Notes: a model not told the origin generated them from the letters alone. A DNA stretch of 64,000 bases from an uncultured Gemmatimonadales bacterium (GCA_963821525.1 CAWGED010000019.1:672001-736000), one strand, 5' to 3'. Shown: positions 3,161 to 60,786, counted from the first letter of the stretch. Program-made: numbers and translations.

Positions 3161-3277
3161 CAATTGAAGATTGAAGATTTTAGATCTCAGATTGAGAATT
3201 GAAAAATTGCAAATTGGCAATTGCAAATTGGTTGCTCGTTCAATCTGCAATCTAAAATCTTCAATCTTCAATCCTCA
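3161..3277. repeat. Inverted heptamer-array element, GATTGAA family
   Basis: (A/G)ATTGAA-like x~10, spacer, CAATCTT-like x5; hisF/NUDIX junction. Confidence 0.85.
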
Positions 3278-3728
3278 GCACGTCCTCCAGCTCCCCCGCA
3301 TTCCCCCGGCCCAACAACACTTCAATGTCCGTCAGCGCCCGCCGCTCGCGGGGCCAGGCGAGACGCTCGCGGGCCGCGGGAAAGGACAGCCACTCGAAGG
3401 CGTCGTGCTCACTGCTCAAGCGTACCGCTGCGTTCGGTACGAAGACCGCGAAGACCGGAATGAAGGCTACCTCGTCCACCCGGTGGCGATAGAACGTTTC
3501 CACCCGGCTCAGGTTGTAAAGTCGTTCCGGCGTGAGACCGGTTTCTTCCCGCAACTCGCGAAGCGCAGCCTGGAGCGGAGTCTCTCCCTCTTCGATGCTC
3601 CCATGCACTACTTCCCAGGCGCCGCTGCAGCGGCCTCCAGGAGCACGGCGAAGCGCCAGGACTTCAAGCGTCGAGCCCGCGCGTCGCAGCGGGTAGACAT
3701 CAACGAAGGTGACCCGGAACGTCGTCAC
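3261..3728 (-). CDS. NUDIX hydrolase (NudB-like)
   Basis: Nudix box GSIEEGETPLQAALRELREETGL and LSSEHDAFEW motif; GTG start overlaps hisH stop. Confidence 0.88.
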   Translation of the reverse strand: MTTFRVTFVDVYPLRRAGSTLEVLALRRAPGGRCSGAWEVVHGSIEEGETPLQAALRELREETGLTPERLYNLSRVETFYRHRVDEVAFIPVFAVFVPNAAVRLSSEHDAFEWLSFPAARERLAWPRERRALTDIEVLLGRGNAGELEDVLRIED

Positions 3729-4345
3729 GGATTCCAGCTGCCGAATCTCGCGAGCAAGGCGACTCCAGCCTGCTGCGATTTCTCCGGGTGGAATTGCACG
3801 CCGAGGACGTTTTCCCGCCCGACAATCGCAGGGAACGCTCCGCCGTAGTCGCCCAGAGCCAGCGCGGTGTCGGCCGCGAGATCGAAGGGATGGTAACTGT
3901 GGACGTGGTAGTAGAACGTGGCCCCATCCGGAAAGAGCGGCATGAGAACCGGATGGCGCCTGCCCTGCTCGGTCGGCCGAATCTCCGCCCATCCAACGTG
4001 AGGGAGTGGGAGGCCGGACCGGAACCGGATCACCCGTCCCTCGAGGATTCCCAGTCCCCTGGCCTCCGGGGCTTCCTCGCTCTCCGGAAACAGGAGCTGC
4101 AATCCGAGGCAGATGCCGAGCACGGGCCTGCCCGCTGCGGCGACGGCGCGGATCGCGTCGGGAAGGCCACGCTCCGCGAGATTGCGGGAACCTTGTCCGA
4201 AGTGGCCTACTCCGGGCACTACGAGCCGACCGGCCTTGCGCAGCTCATCTGGATCGGCCGAGAGCATGGCCTCGTGGCCGGCAGCGGCCAGGGCCCGGAC
4301 CACGCTGCTGAGATTGTTGACTCCGTAATCCACCACAGCGATCAC
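3725..4345 (-). CDS. hisH: Imidazole glycerol phosphate synthase glutamine amidotransferase subunit
   Basis: [38 protein letters not shown] overlaps hisB stop. Confidence 0.95.
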
Positions 4346-4933
4346 AGCACGCCCTTGGTAGACGGAACACCCTTGACTCGAGGATCCCGCGAGATCGCGG
4401 ATTCCAGGGCGCGAGCAAACGCCTTGAACGCGGCTTCCACGATGTGATGCGGGTTGTCTCCCCGGATCAGGTCCATGTGGGCCGTGAGACCGGCATGCTG
4501 TACCAGGGCGCGGAAGAACTCCGGAGTGAGGAAGACGTCGTAGTCTCCCAGCATCTGCCACTTGGGGATGTCCACGTGATACGCCAGGAAAGGGCGACCC
4601 GAGACGTCGATCACCACTCGCACCAGGGCGTCATCCAGCGGCACCAGCGCATCGGCGTAACGGCGGATTCCGGCGCGATCTCCCAGCGCCTTGGCGATGG
4701 CCTGGCCGAGTACGATGCCGGTGTCCTCCACCGTATGATGCCCGTCCACGTGGAGGTCGCCCTCGACCCTCGAGCTCGAGGTCGAGCAGCCCATGCCGGG
4801 CGAATGCCTCGAGCATGTGATCGAAGAAGCCCAGCCCGGTCTTGACCCGCGCCTCGCCGGTTCCGTCCAGGTTCACCCGGGCGCGGAGCGTGGTTTCTTT
4901 GGTTGTCCGGAAGACTTCGGCGGTGCGTATCAT
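4342..4933 (-). CDS. hisB: Imidazoleglycerol-phosphate dehydratase (frameshift near 4769)
   Basis: RTTKET...GFFDHML in one frame; [13 protein letters not shown]...[12 protein letters not shown]...PSTKGVL in the adjacent frame. Confidence 0.93.
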
Positions 4934-5048
4934 AGGGAGTAGGGAGTAGGTGTTGGGCAGTAGGGCGCGGGGGGCGGACTCATGGTGGGACGAAGCCTTG
5001 CAACCTCGGTGAAACGCCCTACCCCCTACTCCCCACTTCCTACAACCT
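4934..5048. repeat. Inverted heptamer-array element, AGGGAGT family
   Basis: AGGGAGT AGGGAGT AGGTGTT GGGCAGT ... ACTCCCC ACTTCCT ACAACCT; fills the hisB/hisC gap. Confidence 0.85.
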
Positions 5049-5049
5049 G

Positions 5050-6162
5050 TCAGTCCTTGAGAATTGCCGAAAGGCCCGCCACCACCGCCGCGGTGTCCTC
5101 CGCCGTCCCCACCGATATCCTCAAACACTCGGCCAGCCCAGCGCCGCTCGACACGTCCCGCACCAGAATCCCATGCTCCTCCACCAGCCGCCGGAACACG
5201 GTGCGGGCGGGAACCCGGTCGCAGCGGACCAGGACGAAATTGGCCTTGCTGGGGAACGGATGCAGCCCGGCGATGGAGCCCAGGAAGCCGAGGAAGCGGT
5301 CCCGCTCCTGGGCGATCGCCTTGGCCCGCGTGGCGAACTCCGCACTGTGCTTGAGCATCACCTCCGCCGCCACCAGCGTGATCGCATTCACGTTGTAGGG
5401 CAGCTTGGCCTTCGCTATCTCCCGGGCGACATCCGGATGAGCCAGCGCGTAGCCGAACCGGAGGCCCGCCATGCCCATCGCCTTCGACAGGGTTCGCAGC
5501 ACGACGATTCGGGGCGACTGGCGCAGCAGGGTAAGCGCCGTTGGGCCGCCGAAGTCCTGGTAGGCTTCGTCGCAGAGCAGAAGCGACTCGGTCCGCTCCA
5601 GCAACGTCGCCACACCGTCCTCCGGCAGGACGGACCCGGTGGGATTGTTGGGCGAGTTCAGCACCACGACCCGGGCCCGCTCGCGCCGTGCCACGGCGGC
5701 GAGCGCATCCACATCGTAGGCGTATTCCGCTCCGAGCGGCACTGGGAGATATCGCCCGCCCATCACTCCGGTCATGATCCGGTAGAGCGCGAAGGAAGGC
5801 TGGGGCACCACGACCGGATCGCCGGTATTCACCGCGACCGAAATCGAAGCCTGGATCACCTCGTTGGACCCGTTCCCAACCAGCACTCCCTCCGGATCCC
5901 AATCGTGCTTCGCCGCGATCTGCTCGACCAGCTTCCGCGGCACGAACTCAGGATAACGGTTCCACGGCGTAGCAAGCGCGCGCTCGATTACCTCCCGCTT
6001 GAGATGCTCGGGAACATCGAACGGCGATTCGTTCTGATTGAGCTTTCGCTCGGCGGAGAGGCCGGAGAGCGTGTAGGCGGAGAGGGAGAGGACGGTAGGC
6101 TTGATCAGTCCGGCAATTTCAGATTGCCGATTGCTGATTGCAGATTGGGAGGGGCTCGTCAT
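5050..6162 (-). CDS. hisC: Histidinol-phosphate aminotransferase
   Basis: [40 protein letters not shown]; his operon context. Confidence 0.93.
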
Positions 6163-6268
6163 TTCCGGCTCACGTTCAGTCGCCAACCAACCCGCAGAAT
6201 TCAATTACCAATTTTCAATTACCAATTACCAATTGTCAATCTTAAATCTTCAATCTTAAATCTCCAAT
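6121..6268. repeat. Inverted heptamer-array element, GATTG family, enclosing the hisC start
   Basis: AGATTGC CGATTGC TGATTGC AGATTGG ... CAATTAC / CAATCTT x~10. Confidence 0.8.
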
Positions 6269-6271
6269 CAC

Positions 6272-8533
6272 CTACTCCTTCCTCCTCGCCAGCACCACCT
6301 CCAGCCGTTTCGAAAGCGCCTTGGCTCGGAAGGGCTTGGTGAGGAAATCGTCGGCGCCCAGCTCGAAGACCCGGACTTCGTTGTCCTCGTCGCCTTTGGC
6401 GGTGAGAACGATGACTGGGGTCTTCCTGGTGGCGGGACGGGAGCGGAGCTGTGAAAGCACCGAGTATCCGTCCATGTCCGGCAGGTTCAAGTCGAGCACG
6501 ACCACATCGGGGGCGTGGCGGTCCACCTGGTCCAGCGCCTCGACCCCATTTCTTGCCTCGAGGACCGCGTATCCCTCGCGGGCCAGCAGATCCTTCATGA
6601 CCCGACGCAGCGAATCCTCGTCGTCCACCAGGAGGACCGATGCTCCGTGGACCGGCCGGACGACTTCGACGCTCGCGGCCTCATCGTCAATCAGGTCGAA
6701 GGCGGTCGTGAGATCGGCGACCGGAATATTGACCGCGGGGACGGGACCCGAGGGCGTGCCGTGGTGGGGACCGGGTGTGCTGCGCTTGGACGGAAGCGGC
6801 GTGTTGACGCTTGGCGTCGCCGGGCGGCCGGTGCTGCGCTCGTCCATCGGAACGTCCACCACGCGAAGCAGCTCCTCTACGCTGGTTTCGCCGCTCAATA
6901 CATGTTGCACACCGCTTTCGAACAGCGACTTCATCCCGTTGGCCCTGGCGGCTTCGGCGATCTTGTCCGCCTGACCGCCCGCTCCGATCCTCCGCTCCAG
7001 CTCGGCGTTCATCGTAAGAATCTCGACCACCGAGAATCGCCCGCGGTACCCGGTCATGGCGCAATCGGGGCAGCCGACGGCCCGATAGAGCGTCGTGCCC
7101 GGCGGGATGTAGCGCCGGATCCGGGTCGGGATATCTCCGTCGTTGACCTCGCGACAGCGGGGACAGATCCGCCGCATGAGGCGCTGGGCGATCACCCCGC
7201 GGAGGGCCGGGCCGATCTTGTACGGCTCCATCCCCATGTCCACCAGACGGGTGATGGCGTTGGGTGCGTCGTTGGTGTGCAGGGTCGAGAGCACCAGGTG
7301 GCCGGTCAGCGAGGCCTGCAGCGCGATCTGCGCCGTCTCCCGGTCGCGCACCTCACCCACCAGCACCACGTCGGGGTCCTGGCGGAGGATCGACCGGAGT
7401 GCCGCCGAGAAGGTGAGTCCCGCCTTCTCGTGCACCTGCACCTGGACGATGCCCTTGCCCAAGCGGTATTCGACCGGGTCCTCGACGGTGACGATGTTGA
7501 CGCCGTCGCTCTGAACCATGCGCAGCGCGGAGTAGAGCGTCGTGGTCTTGCCCGAGCCGGTCGGCCCGGTGACCAGGACGATGCCCTCCTTGTTGTTGAG
7601 CAGGTTCTTGATCGCTTCGCGCTCTTCCTCGCTCATGCCGAGCGAATCGAGCGAGAGCACCGTGGCCTTGGCGTTGAGAATCCGGATGACGACCTTCTCG
7701 CCGAGGGAGGCGGGGAGGGTCGAGACCCGCAGGTCCACGGGGGAGCCGTTCACCGCGACCCGGGCGCGGCCGTCCTGCGGGCGCAGCCGGTCAGCGATGT
7801 CCAGCCCGGACATGATCTTGATGCGCGAGATGAGTGGTGCGCCCGCGGTCCGCGGAATGTTCATGACCTGGCGCAAGACTCCGTCGATCCGGTAGCGAAC
7901 CGCAACGCCCGCTTCGCCCGGCTCGATGTGAATGTCGCTTGCCCGAGACAGGATTCCGTCCGAAAGCATCAGGTCGACCAATCGCACCACCGGCCGCTGA
8001 CTGGCCTCGTCGGCCGAGGCGCTGAGCTCGGCCAGCCCCTCGTTGTCATCCAGCTGGGTGACCTCGAGGCCCTCGTCCATATTCCCCAGCAGCTGGCTCA
8101 TTACCTCCGAGCTGCCGCGGTAGAGCTCATCCATCTTTTCGGCGATGCGGGACGGCGAGCACAGGTGCATCCGCACCTCGCGGCCGGTGGCGAAGGCGAG
8201 ATCCTTTTCCGCGTCGATGTCGTTGGGGTTCGCCGTCGCGATCTCGAGATACGAGTCGCTGATGCCGATGGGGATGATGTTGAAGCGACGGACCAGCGGT
8301 TCGGGTACCGCTTCGCGCGCTTTCTGATCGACCTGATTCAGGTCCGCGACGGGCAGTCGGAACCGTGCAGCGGCGGCCTTCAGGATGTCGTCGTCCTTCG
8401 CCTCTTTGCGCTGGACCAGCGTGGTCCAGAGCGAGACCGGCTCCTTGCCTGGTGCCTCGCGCAAACTATCGAGGACCCCGGGCTTCAGAATCTTCTCCAG
8501 GCTGGGGACGAGCCACTCATCCGTAAACTGCAT
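6272..8533 (-). CDS. GspE/PilB-family secretion/pilus ATPase with C-terminal response-regulator receiver domain
   Basis: ASDIHIEP, PQDGR, Walker A GPTGSGKTTT, LRQDPDVVLVGEVRD, GHLVLSTLHTN, CxxC pairs; C-terminal VLLVDD...DLNLP...TAK...KPF. Confidence 0.92.
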   Translation of the reverse strand: MQFTDEWLVPSLEKILKPGVLDSLREAPGKEPVSLWTTLVQRKEAKDDDILKAAAARFRLPVADLNQVDQKAREAVPEPLVRRFNIIPIGISDSYLEIATANPNDIDAEKDLAFATGREVRMHLCSPSRIAEKMDELYRGSSEVMSQLLGNMDEGLEVTQLDDNEGLAELSASADEASQRPVVRLVDLMLSDGILSRASDIHIEPGEAGVAVRYRIDGVLRQVMNIPRTAGAPLISRIKIMSGLDIADRLRPQDGRARVAVNGSPVDLRVSTLPASLGEKVVIRILNAKATVLSLDSLGMSEEEREAIKNLLNNKEGIVLVTGPTGSGKTTTLYSALRMVQSDGVNIVTVEDPVEYRLGKGIVQVQVHEKAGLTFSAALRSILRQDPDVVLVGEVRDRETAQIALQASLTGHLVLSTLHTNDAPNAITRLVDMGMEPYKIGPALRGVIAQRLMRRICPRCREVNDGDIPTRIRRYIPPGTTLYRAVGCPDCAMTGYRGRFSVVEILTMNAELERRIGAGGQADKIAEAARANGMKSLFESGVQHVLSGETSVEELLRVVDVPMDERSTGRPATPSVNTPLPSKRSTPGPHHGTPSGPVPAVNIPVADLTTAFDLIDDEAASVEVVRPVHGASVLLVDDEDSLRRVMKDLLAREGYAVLEARNGVEALDQVDRHAPDVVVLDLNLPDMDGYSVLSQLRSRPATRKTPVIVLTAKGDEDNEVRVFELGADDFLTKPFRAKALSKRLEVVLARRKE

Positions 8534-8625
8534 TTAACCTCAAGCCTGATAACTAATTAGGGGAGGACGGAGGGAGCCGGTTCGCCTCCTCAAAGGTAAG
8601 GTAGCTGACCCAGAGATTACAGGGG

Positions 8626-10686
8626 CTACAAAACGCCCCACCAATCCGGATTCACGTCCACCATCACGCCGACGTCCCCCGTCTTCAGTGCGACTCCTGC
8701 CTCTACTCGGAGGAGCCTCATAAGAAATTCCGCCGCCACACCAGCCACTGGACGGACTCCTGGTGTGTTATCCCAAGGGGTGTTGGGTACCTCGTCGCTG
8801 GTCCACCCGGCAGCGAGGAAGGGACCCACGCTAATGGTTTGCCCGGTCGATGCAAAGGAGCCCAGCGGAATCGCGACAAAGGGTACTGGAAAGTCCCACT
8901 CAAGCCTGCCCAAGGCGATAGCCCTGCCGCCATAGGCTCGAAACGGTTCTCCTGGCAGCGTTCCTCGTCCGCCCAGAACGAAGCTCCGATAGGCAGGAAG
9001 TCCTGCCGTCCCCCAACCCCCGTAGGCCGTGAAGCCCAGCGTCCCAGGGCCGAGCGGCATAGCCACCGTGCCCTCGCCGGTCGCCCTGAAATATTCGTTC
9101 CCCCCTGTGCTGGCCTCGACCGCGACAGATCCGCTGGTGAGTGCCAGTCCGCGCGAAGCGCCCAGCTCGCCCGCATTCCTGGACAAGGCGACTCCTCCCA
9201 CGAAGCTCGCGTCGGAGCCCAACGCAGGATTGGAGCGATAACTGCCGTGGGCGGGACTGGCTTCGACATCGAGAGAGGATGGGTCTTCATACCCCGCCGT
9301 CAGTGAAATCGCCGTGACTCCTGAGAGTGGGTATCGCACACCAATCCCGATCCGATCGACCATCACGTAATCGCCGTAATCCTCGCCGGCTTCCTGAGAC
9401 AGGATCGAATTCAATACGCCTGAGATGACGGGAACGTCACTGAAGTCATGGATCGACCTGCCGCCCTCCAGTGTTACGGTGGCCGGCCCCGTCGCTACGC
9501 TGATGGCAAGCCCTCCTGTGAATCGCTCGTCTGAAGTCCCGAAGGCGACCCGCGGTTTGAGCAGAATCCTCCGCTGGTCCAAGGCCAGCGTCGCGGCGGC
9601 ACCGAGCGTCAGCCCCTGTACTCGATTCACCCGGATAATGTCGCTGACTGAGGGGATGGCCAGGCCGCCGGAGCCCAGACCTGATAGAATCCGCCCCCCG
9701 GCGATGCGGCCGAATTCCACCCGGAGCGAGTCGAGGTCGCGCTGCGTGACTGGCGCGGCGACTTCGCCCAGAGACTGGGCAAGCGGTTGACTCCACTGGC
9801 CGCCAGTGTCGGAGGCCGCGAGCATCCCTCCAATGGCCGGGCCCCTCAGGACTTCGGGAGGTATCGCCACATCGAAATCGTAGTCCCCGATTTCCCAGCG
9901 ACCCCGGATGATTCCCCGCGCCGGGAAGTCGAGCCACTGACTGCGCCGCCGGATCTCGATCTCCTGCCGATAGGGAAGCCACCAGCGGTCTTCGAACCGG
10001 GCATTTTCGAGCATGATGGAAATGTCTTCCAGGCCCTTTTCCAGATACGCCGCCGGGGTAAACCCGAAGCGGAACCGCACCAGCTCGGCGCTCGTTGCAT
10101 CGAGAGAAAGCGTTCCCACCACGAGAGGCTGACTCCAGTCTTTGGGACGCACCTGGAGCTGGTAGACCAGCAGCTCGCCGCCCCGGGTCTCGATGCGAAG
10201 CGAATCGATCAGCGCGAAGTCGTAGCGAGTCAGGCCGTCGGGCGAGAGCGGGTGAACCACGTCTCTCACCTCGTCGCCCTCGCCGATCCGGATCCGGTTA
10301 CCGAAGTTGTTGGTGACGATGCCGAGGTGATCGCGATGATAGTTGATGTCGGTCGGCAGCCAGCGACCGTCCCGCCAACCGAGGATGATCTGCTTGCTCA
10401 GATCCGGGGCGCGCCAATAGACTTCGACGTCGAGCTCGTCGGCCTTGACCAGGCGTGGCGCCCCTTGCAGCGCGTCGCCCACTTGGGCAAGGAACAGCAC
10501 GAAACCGTGAGCCCGCGTTCGATAGCTGCGCAGGGAGGAGTCGCGCTGAACCTGTGCCCTCACTTCTGTGGCGCGAGCAGCCAGATCCAGGGCTTCCGGC
10601 GAGTTCCACTGCTGGGCGGCCAGGGTCGTCGAGAGACCGGGCAGCAGCAGGAGCGCGGCGTACCATCGTGAACGTCTAATCCCCAT
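8626..10686 (-). CDS. Exported protein with probable C-terminal outer-membrane beta-barrel (start uncertain)
   Basis: Signal-like YAALLLLPGLSTTLAAQ; C-terminal amphipathic strands, LGGRGTLPG loop resembling the Omp85-family motif, aromatic C-terminus. Confidence 0.6.
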   Translation of the reverse strand: MGIRRSRWYAALLLLPGLSTTLAAQQWNSPEALDLAARATEVRAQVQRDSSLRSYRTRAHGFVLFLAQVGDALQGAPRLVKADELDVEVYWRAPDLSKQIILGWRDGRWLPTDINYHRDHLGIVTNNFGNRIRIGEGDEVRDVVHPLSPDGLTRYDFALIDSLRIETRGGELLVYQLQVRPKDWSQPLVVGTLSLDATSAELVRFRFGFTPAAYLEKGLEDISIMLENARFEDRWWLPYRQEIEIRRRSQWLDFPARGIIRGRWEIGDYDFDVAIPPEVLRGPAIGGMLAASDTGGQWSQPLAQSLGEVAAPVTQRDLDSLRVEFGRIAGGRILSGLGSGGLAIPSVSDIIRVNRVQGLTLGAAATLALDQRRILLKPRVAFGTSDERFTGGLAISVATGPATVTLEGGRSIHDFSDVPVISGVLNSILSQEAGEDYGDYVMVDRIGIGVRYPLSGVTAISLTAGYEDPSSLDVEASPAHGSYRSNPALGSDASFVGGVALSRNAGELGASRGLALTSGSVAVEASTGGNEYFRATGEGTVAMPLGPGTLGFTAYGGWGTAGLPAYRSFVLGGRGTLPGEPFRAYGGRAIALGRLEWDFPVPFVAIPLGSFASTGQTISVGPFLAAGWTSDEVPNTPWDNTPGVRPVAGVAAEFLMRLLRVEAGVALKTGDVGVMVDVNPDWWGVL

Positions 10687-10708
10687 CGATCCCCCTGTCC
10701 CCTGTCTC

Positions 10709-11278: not shown

Positions 11279-11293
11279 TACCCTTACCTCCCC

Positions 11294-12784: not shown

Positions 12785-12792
12785 AAATCCCC

Positions 12793-14396: not shown

Positions 14397-14531
14397 GATT
14401 GAAGATTGAGGATTTCAGATTGAAGATTGGGAACTGCAATTTCAGATGGAAGATTTCAGATTGAAGATTTGAAGCCGATGCTCAAAACTGCAGTTCAAAT
14501 CTGAAATCTGACATCTTAAATCTGAAATCTG
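14397..14531. repeat. Inverted heptamer-array element, GATTGAA family
   Basis: GATTGAA GATTGAG GATTTCA ... AAATCTG x~5; between convergent cyclase and maf. Confidence 0.85.
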
Positions 14532-15090: not shown

Positions 15091-15185
15091 AGGGATAGAG
15101 GGAGTAGGGATTGGGGAGTAGGGAGTAGGGCGAACCGATTGGGCGGAGGAAGTGGCCCACTCCCCACCCCCTACTCCCTACAACC
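15091..15185. repeat. Inverted heptamer-array element, AGGGAGT family
   Basis: AGGGAGT-like x6 ... CCCCACC CCCTACT CCCTACA; maf/dtd junction. Confidence 0.85.
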
Positions 15186-15187
15186 GG

Positions 15188-21627: not shown

Positions 21628-21780
21628 CAGCCGTCAGCCATCAGCCGTCAGACAGCCAGCTGTTAGCTATTAGCTGTCATAGAGGCCGCAATGAGAGACC
21701 CTCCGACGGGTTGCGTCGGAGGGTCTCGTTATTGGCTGATCGCCAACAGCTAATAGCTGACGGCTCTGACGGCTGACGGC
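21628..21780. repeat. Inverted heptamer-array element, CAGCCGT family, with inner hairpin
   Basis: CAGCCGT CAGCCAT CAGCCGT..TAGCTAT TAGCTGT ... AGCTAAT AGCTGAC..GACGGCT GACGGC. Confidence 0.85.
21689..21734. terminator. Strong hairpin between convergent genes (probable bidirectional terminator)
   Basis: 14-bp perfect stem GAGACCCTCCGACG / CGTCGGAGGGTCTC with loop GGTTG, extended by CAATGA/TTATTG. Confidence 0.65.
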
Positions 21781-23621: not shown

Positions 23622-25001
23622 CTATACCATGAGTTCGCGGCAAGCCGACACCAGTTGTTCGGCTGCTTCGGCGGTTGGCGCTTCGGCGATGAACCGCACG
23701 ATCGGCTCAGTTCCCGAAGGCCGAATGTGTACCCATCGGTCCTCCCACGCGAGCCGCAGTCCATCGCGAGTGTCCGCTACCGCATCACTGAATCGCGCGG
23801 TCAGCTTCGCGTACACGGGAGCCAAGTCCTTGCCCCGCTGTCCCTTAGCCTTAACTATCCGGTACTGCGGCTGCCCGGCGACCAACCGGGAAACAGCCTG
23901 CCCGGATCGGGCGAGCAGGTGCAAAATTAGCGCCACACCCACTGGTGCGTCACGCCCAATGTGGAGTGCGGGCAGAATCACACCACCGTTGCCTTCACCC
24001 CCGATTACCGCCCCCTCATCCCGAATCGCGCGAGCGACGTTCGCCTCACCCACTGCGGCGCGGACGAAACGGGCGCCACACATCCGGGCGGCATCCTCGA
24101 CCACAAGACTGGTGGAGAGGTTGGCGACGACCACCGGCGGACCGGCGGACCGGCGGACCGGCGGAACAGCGGACCCATCGAGAACAGAGCGCACCGCGAA
24201 CGCCAAGGTGTAGTCCTCGCCGATCGGACGCCCCGTTTCATCCACCAGGGCCAGTCGGTCTACATCGGGATCCACCGCCAGACCAATCACCGCACCGCTC
24301 TCGCGAACCAGCCGGGAAAGCTCGCCCAGATTCTCGGGGAGTGGCTCGGGCGCCCGGGGAAATTTTCCGTCGGTCTCCAGATTGATTCCGGAGACTCGAC
24401 ATCCCAGCCGCTCCAACAGCTGGGGAATCGTGGTTCCACCAGCGCCGCGAACACAATCGAGCGCCACGGTGAACTTTTTCGCCCGGATCGCTTCGACATC
24501 CAGACCGGGAAGCGCCAAGACCTGTTCGAGATGCCGCTTGATAGCATCACGATCTTCGCGATACTGGCCAACTCCCTCCCATCCGGTGCGAGCCGGCCCC
24601 TGTTCGGCGAGGGCGCGGACCGCATTGCCGGCGGCGCCGTCGAGGAAGATCCCGTCGGGACCGACGAACTTGAGGGCGTTCCACTCGATCGGGTTGTGAC
24701 TCGCGGTGAGAATGAGCCCGGCCCCGGCGTGGTGATGCTCGACCGCGAGCTGCACGGTGGGCGTCGGTACTACGCCGACATCGATGACCTCGACGCCCAC
24801 CGACATGAGGCCCGCCGTGGCGGCTCGGGCGTACATCGGCCCGCTGGTGCGCGCATCCCGCCCCAGGACGACGACCGGCTTGCCGTTCTGCCGGGCCCAG
24901 TCACCAAGGGCCGCGGCATGGCGCGCGACGAGTTCGGGTGTCAGGTCCTTGCCGACAATGCCACGCATGCCGGAAACGCTGATCATCAATGTGTCGGACA
25001 T
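23622..25001 (-). CDS. glmM: Phosphoglucosamine mutase / alpha-phosphohexomutase
   Basis: TASHNP, DPDVDR, GGEGNGG, RPSGTEP; directly upstream of glmS. Confidence 0.85.
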   Translation of the reverse strand: MSDTLMISVSGMRGIVGKDLTPELVARHAAALGDWARQNGKPVVVLGRDARTSGPMYARAATAGLMSVGVEVIDVGVVPTPTVQLAVEHHHAGAGLILTASHNPIEWNALKFVGPDGIFLDGAAGNAVRALAEQGPARTGWEGVGQYREDRDAIKRHLEQVLALPGLDVEAIRAKKFTVALDCVRGAGGTTIPQLLERLGCRVSGINLETDGKFPRAPEPLPENLGELSRLVRESGAVIGLAVDPDVDRLALVDETGRPIGEDYTLAFAVRSVLDGSAVPPVRRSAGPPVVVANLSTSLVVEDAARMCGARFVRAAVGEANVARAIRDEGAVIGGEGNGGVILPALHIGRDAPVGVALILHLLARSGQAVSRLVAGQPQYRIVKAKGQRGKDLAPVYAKLTARFSDAVADTRDGLRLAWEDRWVHIRPSGTEPIVRFIAEAPTAEAAEQLVSACRELMV

Positions 25002-25166
25002 GGGCGGAAAGGTAGGAGGGGCGGCGGAGTGACGGTATGGTGCTAAGGTGGTATGGCTGGAGGGCGGACAGGGCGGACAGGCGGCAAGCGGACGGCGTAA
25101 GTCGCGGCTGCAAGTCCCTCACTACCACCATCCCGCCCTCCCGCCGTCCGCCCTACCGCCTACCTA
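25002..25166. repeat. Inverted 8-mer array element, GGCGGA family
   Basis: GGCGGACA-like and GGTATGG-like units ... CCGCCCTC CCGCCGT CCGCCCTA CCGCCTA. Confidence 0.65.
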
Positions 25167-34716: not shown

Positions 34717-34860
34717 AGGCAGGGAGTAGGTTGTAGGGTGGTGGGGAGTGGGGCGTGTACCTGTCGCTCGACTTGTGACCACAGGCTCCAGACTCCAGAC
34801 TCCAGACTCCGACTCCCTACTCCCTACTCCCTACTCCCTACTCCCCACTCACCCACAACC
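34717..34860. repeat. Inverted heptamer-array element, AGGGAGT family plus CTCCAGA units
   Basis: AGGGAGT AGGTTGT.. ... CTCCAGA x3 then TCCCTAC x4. Confidence 0.88.
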
Positions 34861-34861
34861 T

Positions 34862-39279: not shown

Positions 39280-39385
39280 GATTGAAGATTCGAAAGATTT
39301 AAGATTTCAAATTGAACAGCCTCTAGGTCGCATATCCCTTCTGATGCGCCCAAATCTTCAATCTGAAATCTTAAATCTTCAATTC
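39280..39385. repeat. Inverted heptamer-array element, GATTGAA family
   Basis: GATTGAA GATTCGA AAGATTT AAGATTT ... AAATCTT CAATCTG AAATCTT AAATCTT. Confidence 0.85.
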
Positions 39386-40163: not shown

Positions 40164-41096
40164 TCATACCAGCCTGTCCACCAACGCGAATCCAAACACC
40201 GTGAGGCTCATGATGCCGTTCATCGTGAAGAAGGCGGCATCGAGCCGCGACAAATCGCCGGGCCTTACCAGCCGGTGCTCGTACGCCAGAATCAACGCCG
40301 CTGCACCCACACCGACATAGAACCAGGCGCCGAACCCCGCCCCCAGCCCGAACAGCACCAGGGCGGGAATGGTGATCCCGTGCAAGAGCTTCGCGAAGAG
40401 AATACTTCGCTTTTCACCGAGTCGCACGACCGCGCTGCGGAGTCCTTCACCCTTGTCGAACGCCTGATCAGGCAACGCGTAGAAGATGTCGAACCCAGCG
40501 ACCCAGGTGGCGACCGCGAGACTGACCGCGATCAAGGTCCACCAGGGGCTGCTCCAGGCCCCGGTGATCGCCAGATATCCTCCCACCGGAGCAATTGCCA
40601 GACTCATTCCCAGCCACAGGTGTGGCCACCAGGTGAATCTCTTGCTCAGGCTGTACAGCATGACCCAGCCGAGTGCGAGCGGGCTCAGGTAGAGACAGAG
40701 ACGGTTGAGACCGGCTGCAGAAGCGACGAAGAGCGCGGCAGCGATGACGACGGAGACCCAGGCCTGAGCAACACTCAGCGCCCCGCGGGGAAGCTCCCGG
40801 TTTTGAGTCCGCGGATTTCGCGCGTCGAACTCCCGGTCCACGATCCGATTGAAGGCCATCGCCACCCAGCGCGCCGCCGAGAACGCAATGACCACGAGGC
40901 CTACCTGCCGCCAGGTGACGCCACGCTGAAACGATGCTTCGAGAACACCGAGCAGGGCGAAGGGGAGCGCGAAGAGGGTGTGGGGCAGCTTGACCAGGTT
41001 GGCATAGCGAACCAGCAGGGACTCGCCGGCGAAGGTCTGGCCTTCCCGCCCGACCGGCAGTCGATGGTCAATAGTCGATGGTCGATGGTCTTTCAT
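40164..41096 (-). CDS. UbiA-family prenyltransferase (MqnP-like)
   Basis: KLPHTLFALPFA, FNRIVDREFDARNPRT..RELP, YSLSKRFT, GFDIFYALPD, AFFTMNG. Confidence 0.9.
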   Translation of the reverse strand: MKDHRPSTIDHRLPVGREGQTFAGESLLVRYANLVKLPHTLFALPFALLGVLEASFQRGVTWRQVGLVVIAFSAARWVAMAFNRIVDREFDARNPRTQNRELPRGALSVAQAWVSVVIAAALFVASAAGLNRLCLYLSPLALGWVMLYSLSKRFTWWPHLWLGMSLAIAPVGGYLAITGAWSSPWWTLIAVSLAVATWVAGFDIFYALPDQAFDKGEGLRSAVVRLGEKRSILFAKLLHGITIPALVLFGLGAGFGAWFYVGVGAAALILAYEHRLVRPGDLSRLDAAFFTMNGIMSLTVFGFALVDRLV

Positions 41097-41180
41097 CGCG
41101 ATGCCGACCTGCGCTCCTGTTTCCGGATCAAGGGACCATCGACCATTGACCACCGACCATTGACGATCGACCACCGACCG
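41060..41180. repeat. Inverted heptamer-array element, GTCGATG family, enclosing the ubiA start
   Basis: GTCGATG GTCAATA GTCGATG GTCGATG ... GACCATC GACCATT GACCACC GACCATT GACGATC GACCACC. Confidence 0.88.
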
Positions 41181-52908: not shown

Positions 52909-52976
52909 CCTCTCAAATCCTTACGTCTCCACGTCTCAACTTACGATATCCCCACTTCCCAGAAAGGTAATCCCCC

Positions 52977-53996: not shown

Positions 53997-54017
53997 ACCG
54001 CGAAATCTAACGACACT

Positions 54018-55497
54018 TCACTTCCGGTTCAGTACCGAATGCCTGCGTCCATAGGTGAAATAGATCAACAATCCGATGAGCATCCAGACCACGAGACGGG
54101 CCCAGGTGTCTTTGGGAAGCGAAATCATCAGGTACCCGCAGAACAGGATTCCGAGCACAGGCACCCAAGGCACCAGTGGAGTCTTGAACGGCCGCGGGAT
54201 GTTCGGGTCGGTGTAGCGCAGCACCAGCACGCCGCCGCAGACGATCACGAAGGCGAGGAGAGTGCCGATCGAAACCAGCTCGCCCAGCAGCCCGATCGGG
54301 AAGAAGCCCGCGATCAGCATCGCGACGATACCGGTCAGGATGCTCGCGATCCAGGGGGTCTGAAACTTGGGATGCACCTTTGCGAACAACGGCGGGAGCA
54401 ACCCGTCCTTCGACATGGTGTAGAAAATCCGGGGCTGCCCCAGCAACATCACCAGGATCACCGACGAGAGGCCGGCGATTGCACCGATCTTGACGATCGG
54501 GCGGAGCCAGGCCAGCCCCGGTCCGGCTGCGTTGATGCCGACCGCGATCGGATCGGGAACGTTGAGCTGGTCGTACTTGACGATGCCGGTGAGCACGAGT
54601 GCCACCGTGATATACAGCACGGTGCAGATGGCGAGCGAGCCCAGGATGCCGATCGGCATGTCCTTTTGGGGATTCTTCGCCTCCTGGGCCGCAGTACTCA
54701 CCGCGTCGAATCCGATGTAGGCGAAGAAGATCACCGCCGCGCCCCGCGCGATGCCCGCCGATGCCGAAATGGCCCGGGTCGGTGGCCGGCGGGATGAAGG
54801 GCACCCAGTTCTCCCGGTTGATGTAGGCCATCCCGAAGGCGATGAAGGCCAGGATCACCGTCATCTTGATGCCGACGATGACGTTGTTGAAGTTGGCTGA
54901 CTCCTTGATGCCGATCACCAGCAGGACCGTTATGAAGAACACGATAAACATCGCTGGGACGTTGATCACGTTTCCCGTCTTGCTCCATCCATGCGCGAAG
55001 AGGCTCCAGAAGTTCCACCACGGCACGTCCGCCGCCACGGTGTGCGTATAGGGCGCTCCGGTGTATTCCGCGGGAATGTTGATCCCCATGTCCTTAAGCA
55101 GCGAGACCGTATAGCCGGACCACCCCACCGCGACCGTGCTGGCCGCGAAGAGGTATTCCAGGATGAGGTCCCAGCCGATGATCCAGGCCACGAATTCCCC
55201 GAGGGTGGCGTAGCCGTAGGTGTACGCCGACCCGGAGATTGGGATCATTGCCGCGAATTCCGCGTAGCACAGTCCGGCGAATCCGCAGGCAACGCCTGCC
55301 AGAATGAACGAGAACACGATGGCCGGACCGGCGTAGGCGGCTGCGGCCTGACCGGTCAGCACGAAAATGCCGGCACCGATGATGGCGCCGATACCCAGCA
55401 GCGTGAGGTTGCCCGCGCCGAGGGCTCGCTTGAGGCTGTGATCGGCCGCGATCGCCTCCTGCAGCGAGGCCACAGTCTTGCGACGGAAGAGGCTCAT
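54018..55497 (-). CDS. APC amino acid permease, copy A (frameshift near 54757)
   Basis: LGIGAIIGAGIF, YAEFA, GSAYTY, FFAYIGFDAVST, GTLLAF. Confidence 0.9.
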
Positions 55498-55527
55498 CGA
55501 CGCTCCGTTAGGAGAGGGTGAAGGACC

Positions 55528-56988
55528 TCAGGCCTGGCGGCGGCCGAGGCGGGAATGGCGGTAACCAAACGTTCCGTACAGTACGAGCCCGATGACGAAC
55601 CAGATGATCAGCCGTTCCCAGGTCCGCCACGGCAGGGAAACCATCAGGTAGAGCGCGGAGAGCGCGCCGGCCGGGGCGGTGAACCAGATGATGGGAGCCT
55701 TGAAGGGTCGGGCCAGTCCGGGCTCCCGGACACGGAGCACCAGAATGCCGATCGAGACGATCACGAAGGCAAGAAGAGTGCCGATCGAGACCAGGCTGCC
55801 CGCTTCCCGAACAGTGAACCAGCCGGCGGGAATCGCGACGGCGAGGCCGGTCACGATCGAAGTGATCCAGGGAGTCTGGAACCTGGGATGCACCTTGTTG
55901 ACCCATTCCGGGAGCAGCCCGTCCCGCGCCATGCTGTAGAACACGCGAGACTGCCCCAGCAACATCACCAGGATGACCGACGAGAGGCCGGCGATCGCGC
56001 CGAGCTTGATGAAGCTCGAGATCCAGCCCAGCCCGGCCCGATCGGCGACGACCGCGATGGGATCGGGCACGTTGAGCTCGGTGTACGGCACGACGCCGGT
56101 CGCGATACCGGAGACCAGGATGTAGAGAACGGTGCAGACGAGGAGCGAGCCGATGATGCCGATCGGCATGTCCCGCTGCGGATTTCGCGCCTCCTGCGCC
56201 GCCGTACTCACCGCATCGAAGCCGATGTACGCGAAGAACACGACGGCGGCCCCGGTCATCACCCCGCTCCAGCCGAAGGCGCCCTTGATGGGAAGACCGT
56301 CGGGACCCACCGTCTGCGGCGGAATGAACGGGTGCCAGTTGGCCGGGTTCACCGCGTGGATCGTGCCGACGATGAAGACCAGCACCACCGCGACTTTCAC
56401 GAAGACGATCACGTTGTTGACGTTGGCCGACTCCTTGATGCCGACCACGAGCAGCGCGGTAATGATCGCGATGATGATGACGGCGGGGAGGTTGAAGACC
56501 GCGGTGACCGTGGTGCCATCTGCCAGCGTGACCGGACTCCCGTGCGCCGCGCTGAGCCTAGCCGGTATATCGATGCCGATGTCATGGAGAAACGACACCA
56601 CGTAGCCCGACCAGCCGATCGCCACGGTCACCGCACCCAGCGCGTACTCCAGGACCAGGTCCCATCCGATGATCCACGCAATGAACTCGCCGAGCGTCGC
56701 GTAGCCGTAGGTGTAGGCGCTTCCCGCCATCGGGACCAGCGACGCGAATTCCGCGTAGCACAAGGCCGCGAACACCGAGGCGAGGCCCGCGATCACGAAG
56801 GAGAGCACGACGGCCGGCCCGGAATTCTGGGCGGCGACGGTGCCGGTCAGCACGAAGATTCCTGTGCCGATGATGGCCCCGATCCCCAACGCCGTCAGGT
56901 TCCAGGGTCCCAACGCCCGCTTGAGACTGTGGTCCGTGGCGGCTTCGGCCTGCAGGTCGGTGACACTCTTGCGGCGGAAGAGGTCCAT
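55528..56988 (-). CDS. APC amino acid permease, copy B
   Basis: Same motifs as copy A; intact 486 aa. Confidence 0.93.
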   Translation of the reverse strand: MDLFRRKSVTDLQAEAATDHSLKRALGPWNLTALGIGAIIGTGIFVLTGTVAAQNSGPAVVLSFVIAGLASVFAALCYAEFASLVPMAGSAYTYGYATLGEFIAWIIGWDLVLEYALGAVTVAIGWSGYVVSFLHDIGIDIPARLSAAHGSPVTLADGTTVTAVFNLPAVIIIAIITALLVVGIKESANVNNVIVFVKVAVVLVFIVGTIHAVNPANWHPFIPPQTVGPDGLPIKGAFGWSGVMTGAAVVFFAYIGFDAVSTAAQEARNPQRDMPIGIIGSLLVCTVLYILVSGIATGVVPYTELNVPDPIAVVADRAGLGWISSFIKLGAIAGLSSVILVMLLGQSRVFYSMARDGLLPEWVNKVHPRFQTPWITSIVTGLAVAIPAGWFTVREAGSLVSIGTLLAFVIVSIGILVLRVREPGLARPFKAPIIWFTAPAGALSALYLMVSLPWRTWERLIIWFVIGLVLYGTFGYRHSRLGRRQA

Positions 56989-57014
56989 GGTTTGCCTCAG
57001 TAGGTGGAGGGAGG

Positions 57015-57100
57015 GCCGTAAGCCGTAAGCCGTCAGGCCGTCAGCTGAAGCCGCCGGCGATCGGCTTATGCCTTTCGCTGACGGCTGATAGCTGACCGGC
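57015..57100. repeat. Inverted heptamer-array element, GCCGTCA family
   Basis: GCCGTAA GCCGTAA GCCGTCA ... GCTGACG GCTGATA GCTGACC. Confidence 0.8.
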
Positions 57101-57105
57101 GCTCC

Positions 57106-58563
57106 TCACACGTTGTAGTTCGGCGCTTCCCGGGTAATCGTCACGTCGTGGGGATGGGACTCTCGCAACCCGGCGCTGGTGATCTGAATCATCTCGACCT
57201 CGCGCTGTAGCTGCTCGATAGTTGCAGCACCACAGTAGCCCATCCCGCTGCGGAGCCCTCCTACCATCTGGAACAGCACGTCGGCCGCCGGGCCCCTGTA
57301 GGGCACTCGGCCCTCGATGCCTTCCGGCACCATCTTGGAAGACGACAGCTCTCCTTCCTGGAAATAGCGGTCCGCGGAACCGTCCTGCATGGCAGAGAGG
57401 CTGCCCATTCCGCGGATCATCTTGAAGCGGCGGCCTTCGGCGAGCACCGACTCGCCGGGACTCTCTTCGGTGCCGGCCAGCATCGAGCCCATCATGACCG
57501 AGGCGGCCCCGGCGGCGAGCGCCTTCACCACGTCGCCCGAGTACTTGATACCGCCGTCGGCGATGACCGGCACGTCGCCCGCCGCCCGGACCGCGTCCAT
57601 CACGGCGGTGACCTGCGGAACGCCCACGCCGGTCACGACCCGGGTGGTACAAATGCTCCCGGGGCCGACTCCGACCTTCACGGCATCGGCGCCGCGCCGA
57701 ATCAGCTCCTTGGCGCCACTCTCGCTCGCCACGTTGCCGGCGATGAGCTGGGCGTCGGGGAAGGCCTGCCGCATGAGATCCAGCGTCTTGAGGACCCCCT
57801 CGCTGTGGCCGTGCGCCGAATCGATCACCAGCACGTCGGCGCCGGCAGCGAGCAGCTCCTTCGCGCGGTCGATTGCCTCGGGAGTTCCGCCCACCGCGGC
57901 GGCGACCCGAAGCCGCCCGTGCTGATCCTTGTTCGAGTCGGGATACTGGCTGCGCTTGAAAATGTCCTTGACCGTGATCAATCCCCGGAGCACACCCTGC
58001 TGGTCCACCACGGGAAGCTTCTCGATCCGGTGCTTGGCCAGAATCCGTTCCGCCTCGTCGAGCCCGGTGCCAACCGGTGCGGTGACCAGCTTGTCCTTGG
58101 TCATCACCTCGCGGACCGGCTGATCGAGATTCCGCTCGAACTGGAGATCGCGATTGGTGATGATGCCGACCAGCTTCCCCGCGGGATCCACGATCGGGAC
58201 GCCGGAAATCCGGAACCGGTTCATCAGCGTGGCGGCTTCGCGCAGGGGACGATCGGGACCCAGCGTGATCGGGTTCATGATCATCCCGCTCTCGCTGCGC
58301 TTTACCCGATCCACCTCCGCCGCCTGGCGGTCGATCGCCATGTTCTTGTGAAGCACGCCGATCCCGCCCGCCCGCGCCATCGCGATGGCCATCTCCGCCT
58401 CGGTGACGGTGTCCATCGCGGCCGAAACCAGCGGAATGTTGAGCGCGATCTTTCGGGTGAGACGACTCGCGACCGAGACTTGCCGCGGGTGAACTGTGGA
58501 GTGCCGGGGGACCAGCAAAACGTCGTCGAAGGTGAGCGCCAGACCAGGACGAATGGTGCTCAT
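57106..58563 (-). CDS. guaB: IMP dehydrogenase
   Basis: [20 protein letters not shown] pair, [26 protein letters not shown]. Confidence 0.98.
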
Positions 58564-58637
58564 GCCTTACACGTTCCGAAATGGGTCGGGGGTTCCATCC
58601 TTAAGTCTAGAGGCTGGTTACGGGGTGGGTCAAGGTA

Positions 58638-58723
58638 AGGCGGACGGGAGGCGGATTGGCGGAAGGGGGGATAGGCGGATAGGCGGACACTCCAGTCTCA
58701 CCAGTCCTCCTTCAATCCGCTCC
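58638..58723. repeat. 8-mer array (AGGCGGAT) with weak inverted arm
   Basis: AGGCGGAC, AGGCGGAT, TGGCGGAA, AGGCGGAT, AGGCGGAC ... ATCCGC. Confidence 0.6.
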
Positions 58724-60196
58724 CCTCACGATGTTCTTCCGCCACGCCAGGTAGATCGGAATGCCGAGCGCCACAATCAGAAGACCGAACGCGGAATACT
58801 TCCGTTGCACCGGATCGACCAGCAGAACCACAAGCAGGAAAGCGACCGCGGCCATGTACAGCGCTGGCAGCACCGGATATCCGAAGGCTTTGACCGGCCG
58901 GGGTAGATCAGGCTGGATGACTCGAAAGCGAAACAATGCCAGCGTCGTAAAGAAGTAGAAGAGCAGCGACGCAAAGATGACGTAGGTCAGGAGCTCGCTG
59001 TAGGTGCCGCTCAAACAGAGCAGCATGGCCCAGACCGCCTGGGCTCCAAGCCCGAATACGGGGGTGCGGAAGGTCGGGTGCAGCTCACCAGCCTTCCGGA
59101 AGAAGAGCCCGTCCTTCGCCATGGCGTAATAGACCCGAGGCCCCGCGAGAACCAGCCCGTTCACGCAGCCGAAGGTGGAGAGCATGATCGCGATCGCCAT
59201 GAGCACCGCGCCGATCGGACCGAACATCACCTCGGCCGCCGCGACACCTACCCGATCCTGCGCAGCGTGCTGGATGCCACGCGCGATGGTGTCGACGCCG
59301 TTCGGGTCTCCGTGGAAGGGAAGCAGGTTCAGGTACGCCACATTGGCGAGCACATAGAGCAGCGATACCGTGGCGGTCCCGACCCCGAGAGCCAGCGGCA
59401 GATTTCGCCGCGGATTCTGCACCTCGGCTGCGGCGAAGGTGACGTTGTTCCAGGCATCAGCCGAGAAGAGGCTGCCGACCATGGCGGCGCCCAGCACCGG
59501 GAGCACCGCGAGAGACCAGGAGCCTGTCCCCCAGAAGTTGCTGAAGTTCAACGCCGCGATTTCCGGCCGGCGAAGCACCGTGAGGCCGAGCAGGATCAGC
59601 ACGCTCAACGCACCGACCTTGGCCACGGCGAAGACGGTCTGGATCTGCGCCCCGAGTGTCACTCCGCGAGCATTGAGCACGGTCAGGACCAGAACCACAC
59701 CCACCGCCACGAGCCGCTGGTAGGACACACCGATCTCAATCGGCCCCCCGGGCATCTGCAGGTGACCGAGCGAGAGGAAGACATCGGGGGTAACACCGGG
59801 AATCAGCACGCTCAGGAACTTGCCGAACGCGACGGCGACCGCGGCGATGGTGCCGGTCTGGATTACCGCAAACAGCGTCCACCCGAACAGGAATCCGATC
59901 AGCGGGGAGAGCCCGTCTCGCAGGAAGATGTATTGCCCTCCCGCCTTAGGGATCATCGCCGCGAGCTCGGCATAGGCCAGCGCTCCGGTGACGGTCATGA
60001 GACCGGTGACGACCCAGACGATCATCAGGGCGCCCGGACCCCACGCATCTACCTGCCGCCCGATGTCGGCCGAGACGATGAAGATGCCCGAGCCGATCAT
60101 GGTCCCCACGACAAGCGAGACTGCCGCGAGCGGTCCGATGCCTTCGATGAATTGCTTGGGACCGCGCTCGGTGGCGGGTTCGGCCGTGGTGGTCAT
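58712..60196 (-). CDS. APC amino acid permease (LAT/SteT-like)
   Basis: VGTMIGSGIF, YAELAAMIPKAGGQY, DAWNNVTF, GYPVLP. Confidence 0.9.
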   Translation of the reverse strand: MTTTAEPATERGPKQFIEGIGPLAAVSLVVGTMIGSGIFIVSADIGRQVDAWGPGALMIVWVVTGLMTVTGALAYAELAAMIPKAGGQYIFLRDGLSPLIGFLFGWTLFAVIQTGTIAAVAVAFGKFLSVLIPGVTPDVFLSLGHLQMPGGPIEIGVSYQRLVAVGVVLVLTVLNARGVTLGAQIQTVFAVAKVGALSVLILLGLTVLRRPEIAALNFSNFWGTGSWSLAVLPVLGAAMVGSLFSADAWNNVTFAAAEVQNPRRNLPLALGVGTATVSLLYVLANVAYLNLLPFHGDPNGVDTIARGIQHAAQDRVGVAAAEVMFGPIGAVLMAIAIMLSTFGCVNGLVLAGPRVYYAMAKDGLFFRKAGELHPTFRTPVFGLGAQAVWAMLLCLSGTYSELLTYVIFASLLFYFFTTLALFRFRVIQPDLPRPVKAFGYPVLPALYMAAVAFLLVVLLVDPVQRKYSAFGLLIVALGIPIYLAWRKNIVRGAD

Positions 60197-60204
60197 GGGT
60201 GAAG

Positions 60205-60327
60205 GGGTAGTAGGTGGTAGGTGGTGGGTTGTAGGGAGTCTGGAGCAGGAATTAGGGAGTACGGAGCCAGGCAAGACGACGGACCTCGCCCTTGGCCCCA
60301 CTCCCTACTCCCTACCACCTACTACCT
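60205..60327. repeat. Inverted heptamer-array element, AGGGAGT/AGGTGGT family
   Basis: AGGTGGT AGGTGGT GGGTTGT AGGGAGT CTGGAGC.. ... CCCCACT CCCTACT CCCTACC ACCTACT. Confidence 0.88.
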
Positions 60328-60664
60328 ATTTGGATTTTTCGACCTTCTGCCCGGTCTGCTGCGACGATTCCGCCGCCTTGACCGCTTCGTCTACGACCGC
60401 CTGACCCGCGGCCGCCAGTCCCTTCATGATCCGCGAGGCACTATCCATCACACTGGCGGTACCGCTGATGGCCTGCACCGGCAGCTTGGCGGCGCGCATC
60501 GTGTCTTCCACCGTTTCGGTGATCTTCGCCAGGATGCCTCCCGGCGCCGCGCGCTCCGCGTATTTGCTCTCCAGGAATTCGATGAAATCGAGGATCTGAT
60601 ACGCGCGCTCGTCCGGCAGCGACTCGAGGCGTCGCATGATGCGCTGGCGGAGGAGATCGTTCAT
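60326..60664 (-). CDS. Small helical hypothetical protein (DUF2281-like N-terminus)
   Basis: LESLPDERAYQILDFIEFLESKY. Confidence 0.7.
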   Translation of the reverse strand: MNDLLRQRIMRRLESLPDERAYQILDFIEFLESKYAERAAPGGILAKITETVEDTMRAAKLPVQAISGTASVMDSASRIMKGLAAAGQAVVDEAVKAAESSQQTGQKVEKSK

Positions 60665-60666
60665 GG

Positions 60667-60786
60667 GGTGAACGGTGAACAGTGAACGGTGAACAGGTCG
60701 GAAATCACCGTTGCGCACTCAGCAATTTACTAGCGATTGAACTGGTGGCGTGAGCAGGATCCCGTTCCACCGTTCACCGTCCCCGT
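60667..60786. repeat. Inverted heptamer-array element, GGTGAAC family
   Basis: GGTGAAC GGTGAAC AGTGAAC GGTGAAC ... CCGTTCCA CCGTTCA CCGTCCC. Confidence 0.8.

Follow-up and report, generated by a model that had tools for sequence, protein, structure and literature searches.

The window analyzed here is a 64,000-nt stretch from the genome of an uncultured Gemmatimonadales bacterium (GCA_963821525.1, termed G000; contig C19, positions 672001-736000; genome of 4.33 Mb, 64% GC, 81% complete) and was best represented in soil and rhizosphere metagenome runs. Its gene junctions carry short elements in which arrays of tandem 7-nt or 8-nt units face each other as inverted arms across a spacer (Table 1). 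An earlier note on this DNA had described about 14 such elements of 85-165 bp at the junctions of core operons. All 14 were present, with period-7 or period-8 arrays identified by TRF at every start listed there, and measured approximately 80-160 bp; nine of the inverted arm pairs were among the 25 longest shown, and the remaining ones were read directly in the sequence. The siting at gene junctions was borne out, two of the elements (14397 and 21628) lying between convergent genes. Scans of the window with Rfam and ARAGORN gave no matches. Gene positions were obtained with our own crude gene caller, whose start coordinates are unreliable.

Table 1. Repeat elements and single arms of the window, with the state of the same slot in related genomes (G001 and higher numbers). 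X1, X2, and X8 are metagenome runs. The gene at elements 4 and 5 that we take to be Maf-like was named from its motif.
Feature	Position	Arms	Junction or context	Further observations	Same slot in relatives
Element 1	3162..3277	left 3163-3203, inner pair 3204-3230, right 3239-3277	Nudix hydrolase stop / hisF-fusion start	Nudix stop codon (3261-3263) inside arm	period-8 unit in G001, G004; no element in G009, G010, G011
Element 2	4934..5048	4934-4967, 5015-5048	hisC stop / hisB start		hisC-hisB: other unit in G001, G004; head-to-head form without spacer in G002, G003; absent in G009, G011, G016
Element 3	6116..6269	6116-6147, 6200-6269	GspE/PilB-like ATPase stop / hisC	called hisC ATG (6162) in spacer; one arm predicted as hisC N-terminus	
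Element 4	14397..14531	14397-14474, 14494-14531	convergent: FHA-domain gene / Maf-like gene		inner part inverted in G003; two further units in G001, G004
Element 5	15091..15187	15091-15130, 15156-15181	dtd stop / Maf-like start		maf-dtd: different units in G001, G016
Element 6	21628..21780	21628-21677, 21745-21780; nested outer and inner units	convergent: uncharacterized gene / glmS	terminator-like hairpin ~21690-21733 between arms; fold z -10.7	
Element 7	25002..25163	degenerate, period 8/9	HD-GYP-type response regulator stop / glmM start	weak fold	period-7 pair nested within period-8 pair in G004
Element 8	34717..34861	34721-34756, 34782-34861; two graded units	fpg stop / UvrC-like start		
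Element 9	39280..39383	39280-39316, 39352-39383	ubiX stop / YfcE phosphodiesterase start		
Element 10	41060..41179	41060-41090, 41134-41179	ubiE/menG stop / ubiA-like gene	ATG called at 41096 in spacer; one arm predicted translated	ubiE-ubiA: spacer inverted in G001 (by eye)
Element 11	57015..57107	57015-57053, ~57078-57100	guaB stop / amino-acid permease start		
Element 12	58638..58720	left 58638-58687 (period 8), right eroded	APC permease stop / guaB 5' region	26 gap letters in contigs of two other runs	
Element 13	60205..60328	60205-60245, 60296-60328	small ORF stop / APC permease start	bridged in runs X1, X2	
Element 14	60667..60786	60667-60696, 60762-60786	stop at 60787 / start at 60664	bridged in run X8	
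Single arm	2273..2303		within fused hisF-NosD-like ORF, just past HisF domain	overlooked in earlier note	related array in G004; none seen in weaker alignments to five other relatives
Single period-8 arm	24133..24175		within glmM	overlooked in earlier note	related degenerate arrays in G001, G003, G004
Remnant right-form arm	10692..10706		divergent junction		

Contigs from other soil runs bridged the elements at 6116, 58638, 60205, and 60667 and showed indels within the arms; thus, these four are no assembly artifacts. When each element was folded and compared with 200 shuffles (6116 and 25002 after trimming to 150 nt), eight of the 14 predicted hairpins beat all shuffles, two were equaled by one and three by five to eight, whereas 25002 was equaled by 27; the right arm at 58638 was weak in this analysis.

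The elements of the window represent a genome-wide population of 344 paired elements, mostly of 60-200 bp. G000 contained 1009 period-7 and 235 period-8 arrays versus 41-59 for periods 4, 5, 10, and 11, and with the score threshold set at 18 or more, period 7 gave 263 arrays and period 8 gave 60, whereas none of the other periods between 4 and 12 exceeded 14. Within 1.2 kb, 528 of 943 strong arrays had a partner in inverted orientation, compared with 18 of 943 in random 2.4-kb regions. The constant arm polarity that had been claimed for each family was confirmed at 309 versus 1 in the 17 unit classes with at least 10 cases; the overall ratio of 504 versus 7 includes singleton classes, which are consistent by construction. 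The units had been called unrelated between families; as judged by eye, they instead formed approximately 15 graded families. The median arm comprised 4.6 units, left arms were rich in purines and G (39% G, 14% C), and approximately 200 arms were unpaired. A near-identical interior of the type found in MITEs (miniature inverted-repeat transposable elements) was not observed, 172 of 209 spacers having no match elsewhere; of the remaining 37, approximately 20 belonged to a separate, nested family of multicopy palindromes.

The earlier note had suspected a dedicated mechanism behind the elements, possibly recognizable by filled copies. Such copies exist: as the note had anticipated among its examples, a gene for a four-helix-bundle protein (FHB; PF05635/TIGR02436) lies between arms. 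The existence of a dedicated system was likewise supported. In the following, elements with an FHB gene between their arms are referred to as filled and gene-less ones as empty. Nearly all of the 13 PF05635 matches of G000 were located between facing arrays, whose units differed from locus to locus. Seven genomes of the family contributed 67 FHB loci (the 13 of G000 and 54 of the 65 matches in six relatives); arms were present on both sides at 58 loci and mirrored at 55, versus 15% of cross pairs. The protein was assigned to TIGR02436, and its structure model matched 2GSC and 2RLD, which consist of five chains each, and more weakly the accessory protein Avd (TM score of ~0.8). To our knowledge, these two solved structures have brought no functional assignment to the family.

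Sharing of the unit followed the relatedness of the FHB proteins. The same unit was found in 21 of 21 pairs with at least 80% identity, in 35% of pairs with 60-80% identity, and in 2% of 1196 pairs with less than 40% identity; period-8/9 units formed one supported clade on the protein tree. In 63% of 294 short empty elements, the left arm used exactly a unit that also flanks an FHB gene in the genus, compared with 0% for reversed and 6% for shuffled units. Since the repeat types match those around FHB genes, each FHB protein likely recognizes its own repeat, as far as can be deduced from the sequences. Strong raw associations between residues and units emerged from 9196 tests for a residue-to-unit code, which were confounded by phylogeny, and the code was dropped. 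One FHB cassette was present twice in G000 with the same leader, one copy being frame-broken (C9:151-441 and C4:415158-415727). In addition, three GxxExxY (PF13366) genes of G000 (C5:948723, C4:251119, and C8:120644) had inverted arms of their own with a period of approximately 9 by eye and by this inspection form a parallel cassette family.

The association extended beyond the family. In a sample of 80 FHB loci from approximately 13 phyla, obtained with one query and covering one FHB subgroup, 43 had mirrored arms (41 with period 7 and two with period 8), and an inverted-repeat score of at least 14 was reached by 61 of the 80 loci versus 3 of 66 control flanks. Among the 70 loci with an arm, two core trimers changed 10 and 13 times on the tree, versus shuffled means of approximately 20. 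PF05635 was detected in 83 of 121 genomes of the phylum. No arms were found in 339 kb from seven genomes without an FHB match, whereas 12 arms were present in 200 kb taken from six FHB-rich genomes that had been chosen without a synteny bias. A plasmid blastn search with an FHB gene gave no match.

The slots occupied by the elements were compared among relatives. At the junctions of the window, genomes of the same genus nearly always had an element, often with another unit, and several family-level relatives had none. The comparison showed that slots are long-lived, while their contents (unit, spacer, orientation, an FHB gene or none, or a nested palindrome of MITE type) change from species to species. 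When 556 junctions were mapped, clear cases of an element gained or lost between G000 and either G003 or G004 were rare; 14 candidates were listed, most of them with eroded or off-center arms. The spacer was inverted in four versus same-oriented in 13 cases in G003 (two versus seven in G004), and 27 of 48 and 44 of 59 spacers had no BLAST match. A comparison of 45 slots, with units computed from the sequences, included eight informative pairs in which the unit had clearly switched, and seven of these also had a new spacer; with an unchanged unit the spacer was still replaced in 22 of 40 pairs. Rewriting of the arms around a kept spacer, suggested by eye, was dropped as the main mode after strict counting among the switches (one kept versus seven replaced). 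The left half of the G003 element at slot C19:251650 resembles by eye the G000 element at C19:253581, 2 kb away, which suggests that these neighboring elements exchanged sequence.

FHB genes took part in this turnover. When 41 same-genus FHB loci were mapped to G000, 24 corresponded to an FHB slot (often with another paralogue), one to a decayed gene, and 10 to an empty element, and six were unmapped. The 10 loci represent seven slots, at which filled and empty states alternate, and FHB slot orientation, judged by the mapped strand, sometimes changed between genomes. One clean junction of a filled slot versus no insert was found (locus L083 of G011), at a stop codon and between genera, with no clear target-site duplication.

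Given these data, we assign slightly better than even chances to the reading that the empty elements are gene-less members of an FHB repeat system whose filled form has arms of four to five heptamer or octamer units, and in which each paralogue likely binds its own unit and likely drives arm-bounded exchange at fixed gene junctions. Both the binding and the exchange chemistry are deduced here. In a pentameric FHB ring, each subunit would read approximately one unit of the purine-rich strand in single-stranded form, and the ring would bind four to five units of its own word (cf. the 4.6 units per arm, the five-chain 2GSC, and Avd). The exchange would consist of replacement or inversion at an occupied slot and would proceed via host recombination or repair, which we infer because no catalytic partner was found.

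Deletion offers another route from filled to empty elements. If FHB cassettes inserted at stop codons and the protein moved the filled cassette only, the empty elements could be deletion remnants, an explanation that we regard as unlikely. It accounts for the matching units and polarity, for filled and empty states at the seven shared slots, for the clean junction in G011, and for the existence of decayed FHB genes. However, in most slots with both states the unit of the empty element differed by eye from that of the filled copy, and within the genus most FHB genes had stayed in their slot (24 of the 35 mapped loci). Moreover, none of 209 spacers matched any of the 67 cassette interiors, a result whose power is limited because spacers turn over fast, so that a trace of the gene could have been wiped out. 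The earlier proposal that the elements are empty cassettes of a non-autonomous element may hold: units and polarity match, and the spacer comparison, with its limited power, gave no match to a cassette.

The placement relative to genes bears on how the arms are delimited. In G000, 339 elements were placed: 211 at co-oriented junctions (of 3344), 89 at convergent (of 571), 29 at divergent (of 572), and 10 inside genes. The elements had been described as often abutting a stop on one side and a start on the other. This applied to the stop side, where 215 of 313 stop-adjacent ends were within 12 nt of the stop codon and the codon was inside the arm in 80, but the start side was loose (median distance of 37 nt at co-oriented junctions, based on the crude gene calls). 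Unpaired arms kept the stop rule: where the stop was on the outer side, 90 of 124 arms began no more than 15 nt from it, versus 9 of 106 where it was on the inner side (a further 158 arms, with less common units, were left unclassed). In the simplest reading, arms would extend in the outward direction and come to a halt at a stop codon or start signal, and the tight stop-side and loose start-side spacing would result.

The stop rule of unpaired arms and the enrichment at convergent over divergent junctions would also fit an mRNA regulon. By analogy with TRAP, FHB rings might bind the purine-rich array after stop codons and affect termination, decay, or downstream translation, with turnover as a secondary matter. 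Avd binds RNA (bioRxiv 10.1101/2023.10.23.563531), and a translational role has been proposed for another heptamer (MacGregor 2015, PMC4679880). We nevertheless consider such a regulon rather improbable, as the unit found at a given housekeeping junction changes readily from one close species to another, 29 elements are located at divergent junctions, and relatives without arrays retain the same operons.

A structural RNA or DNA signal had been named as a further option. Arms might be under selection for pairing in mRNA, in the manner of an intervening-sequence (IVS) stem in 23S rRNA, and would then provide sites for RNase III or bridge the stop and start codons. The strong predicted hairpins would fit, as would the Coxiella IVS, which combines heptamers, an FHB ORF, and RNase III cleavage (PMC4990558). 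The pairing statistics gave no support for a selected hairpin: on the sense strand, 152 G·U versus 163 A·C combinations were counted, i.e., no G·U excess, and variant words were common to both arms in 57 of 169 elements versus 48 expected, a slight difference. Pairing with the own partner scored 18.6 versus 17.6 with same-family arms, a gain biased by the delimitation of the arms. Conservation of outer versus inner arm parts showed a shallow slope only and was uninformative. Furthermore, approximately 200 arms persist unpaired, and at hisC and the ubiA-like gene the predicted coding sequence takes in an arm. Selection for such stems is thus very doubtful in our view.

Templated repeat addition had been suggested as well. 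By analogy with Avd and the reverse transcriptase (RT) of diversity-generating retroelements, an RT with an FHB partner might write the arms de novo in a telomere-like manner; head-to-head polarity, nested and graded units, spacer-less fusions, and the Avd-like fold are compatible with it. However, a search for RTs, confined to PF00078 (RVT_1), revealed no match in G000, G001 (98% complete and element-rich), G003, G004, or G011, and only G002 of the six genomes had any (two matches). A template RNA was not evident, there being no Rfam match in the window. We consider this origin extremely improbable.

The link to FHB genes was also approached from the repeat side. Metagenomes were searched for facing copies of the published Xanthomonas heptamer 391-451 nt apart, and no protein information was used. 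An FHB gene was enclosed in 28 of the 39 loci found, 27 scoring at least 73 bits and one being a 25-bit fragment; 22 of the 28 had an XCC0516-type signature (counted by eye). One enclosed protein scored 143 bits to 2GSC, i.e., XCC0516 of Xanthomonas campestris, compared with 76 bits for an FHB protein from genome G048. The loci are metagenomic, and the X. campestris locus itself is not among them. From these sequence matches, XCC0516 (PDB 2GSC) is a candidate cognate protein of the Xanthomonas heptamer, which gives a named pair for testing. An Rfam scan of 8 of the 11 loci without FHB gene gave no match. At L327/L330 and L336/L342, Xanthomonas-type facing arms enclose approximately 400 bp without an FHB match; L327 and L336 were scanned with Rfam, also without a match.

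Several observations weigh against arm-bounded exchange by cognate FHB proteins or narrow its basis. Only 30% of the empty elements were matched exactly by G000's own FHB genes, in a genome that is 81% complete, and the failure of spacers to match cassette interiors applies here as well. A donor for new spacers was not found (matches to another slot: 0 of 48 in one comparison, 1 of 59 in the other), and one unit switch kept its spacer (C19:164568). The cross-phylum tree contained only four independent pairs, too few to demonstrate unit specificity, and co-inheritance of gene and arms accounts for part of the tree signal. Three of the six FHB-rich genomes were without arms in the 20-40 kb sampled from each, so that an FHB gene is not sufficient; related genomes in this sampling are not independent. 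The heptamer search used a gap sized for an FHB-length gene and had no reversed-polarity control, and at least four pairs of the 39 loci were duplicates.

Paired heptamer arrays are already in print and have more precedent than the earlier note implied. GGGNATC heptamers have been described for Xanthomonas and Nostoc; the Xanthomonas heptamer forms 70-75 convergent pairs per genome, with four units favored and an intergenic location (Rehm et al. 2015, PMC4692102). The elements described here resemble them in period 7, approximately four units, intergenic and convergent siting, a G-rich strand after stops, and slots kept between species. They differ in that one unit per genome and a G-quadruplex reading were reported there, whereas here the units form approximately 15 families, are swapped at a given slot, and come with a cognate gene; the G-quadruplex reading is not general here, because many units lack a G-tract. 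A link to XCC0516-like FHB proteins was not found in the available part of that paper. Geobacter metallireducens has several classes of sites with three to five 7/8-mers in tandem, which form pairs across the two strands with no fixed spacing (Aklujkar et al. 2009, PMC2700814); these were read as global regulator sites with no protein named in the accessible text, in contrast to the FHB gene link presented here. Intergenic heptamer direct repeats of Beggiatoaceae occur in 2-6 copies of fixed orientation with stops in all three frames (MacGregor 2015, PMC4679880). They are mostly unpaired and beside start codons, with no cognate gene identified in the portion available, unlike the paired and stop-anchored arms studied here.

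The ORF-bearing 23S IVS of Coxiella shares with the filled elements the protein family inside terminal inverted repeats, and its ORF is preceded by heptamers in tandem (Warrier et al. 2016, PMC4990558), but it is located in rRNA and excised by RNase III. The elements of G000 lie at protein-gene junctions, are mostly gene-less, and show no sign of selection for RNA pairing; rRNA siting was not found in the window, which had no Rfam match and protein genes as flanks. Avd forms a pentameric four-helix barrel with nucleic-acid-binding ability and acts together with an RT, their substrate being a stem-loop RNA (bioRxiv 10.1101/2023.10.23.563531), whereas the RVT_1 search found no RT in G000. The Ssn/SRM system (Chenal et al. 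2025, PMC11893778) also has a small gene flanked by its own repeat; gene-less copies number in the hundreds, and the motifs are specific to subfamilies. Its proteins are nucleases that, like the HUH transposases of REP/RAYT (repetitive extragenic palindromes and their associated transposases), read a conserved hairpin; FHB proteins have no known catalytic site, and their motif is a tandem array. Neither an HUH nor a GIY-YIG nuclease was recognized as the cognate protein here, family and fold being those of a four-helix bundle.

REP/RAYT likewise consists of a gene flanked by its own repeat, with an HUH transposase and many gene-less copies, and the cyanobacterial short tandemly repeated repetitive (STRR) sequences are a further unexplained set of intergenic heptamers. 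Several phyla are thus known to have intergenic heptamer arrays for which no cause had been given, and the evidence presented here ties them to the FHB family. A literature search found no paper linking FHB genes to intergenic arrays, with subscription papers mostly outside its reach; the FHB link and the pairing of XCC0516 with the heptamer, both deduced from sequences, appear to be new as far as found. More tentatively, as a possibility that we regard as less likely than not, FHB proteins (23S-IVP/S23p) might be widespread tandem-repeat readers with one paralogue per 7/8-base word that install and swap arm-bounded DNA at gene ends with host enzymes alone and are the source of the Xanthomonas, Geobacter, Beggiatoaceae, and cyanobacterial arrays; they would then constitute a selfish repeat system encoding no nuclease, transposase, or RT. 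If the link between FHB proteins and heptamer arrays holds, a small ring protein with a natural code for tandem words would be at hand in many paralogue/word pairs, and bacteria would have a further route for reshaping gene junctions and even N-termini.

Some further features of the genome were noted. A REP/SRM-like palindrome is present in approximately 60 copies in G000, is nested in approximately 20 of the heptamer elements (e.g., C7:66481, C18:14783, and C19:628199), and takes the place of the FHB gene in some slots; the genome carries four Y1_Tnp genes. In the window, the minus-strand gene at 900-3146 encodes HisF fused to a NosD-like parallel beta-helix domain and carries the single arm at 2273..2303. 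The called hisB ORF (4342-4933, minus strand) covers only profile positions 56-195, its likely start being in another frame; at 4765, one base is missing from the contigs of three other runs, and the frame break there is probably an assembly error. Directly upstream of hisC, the minus-strand gene at 6272-8533 encodes a GspE/PilB-type ATPase with a C-terminal response-regulator receiver domain.

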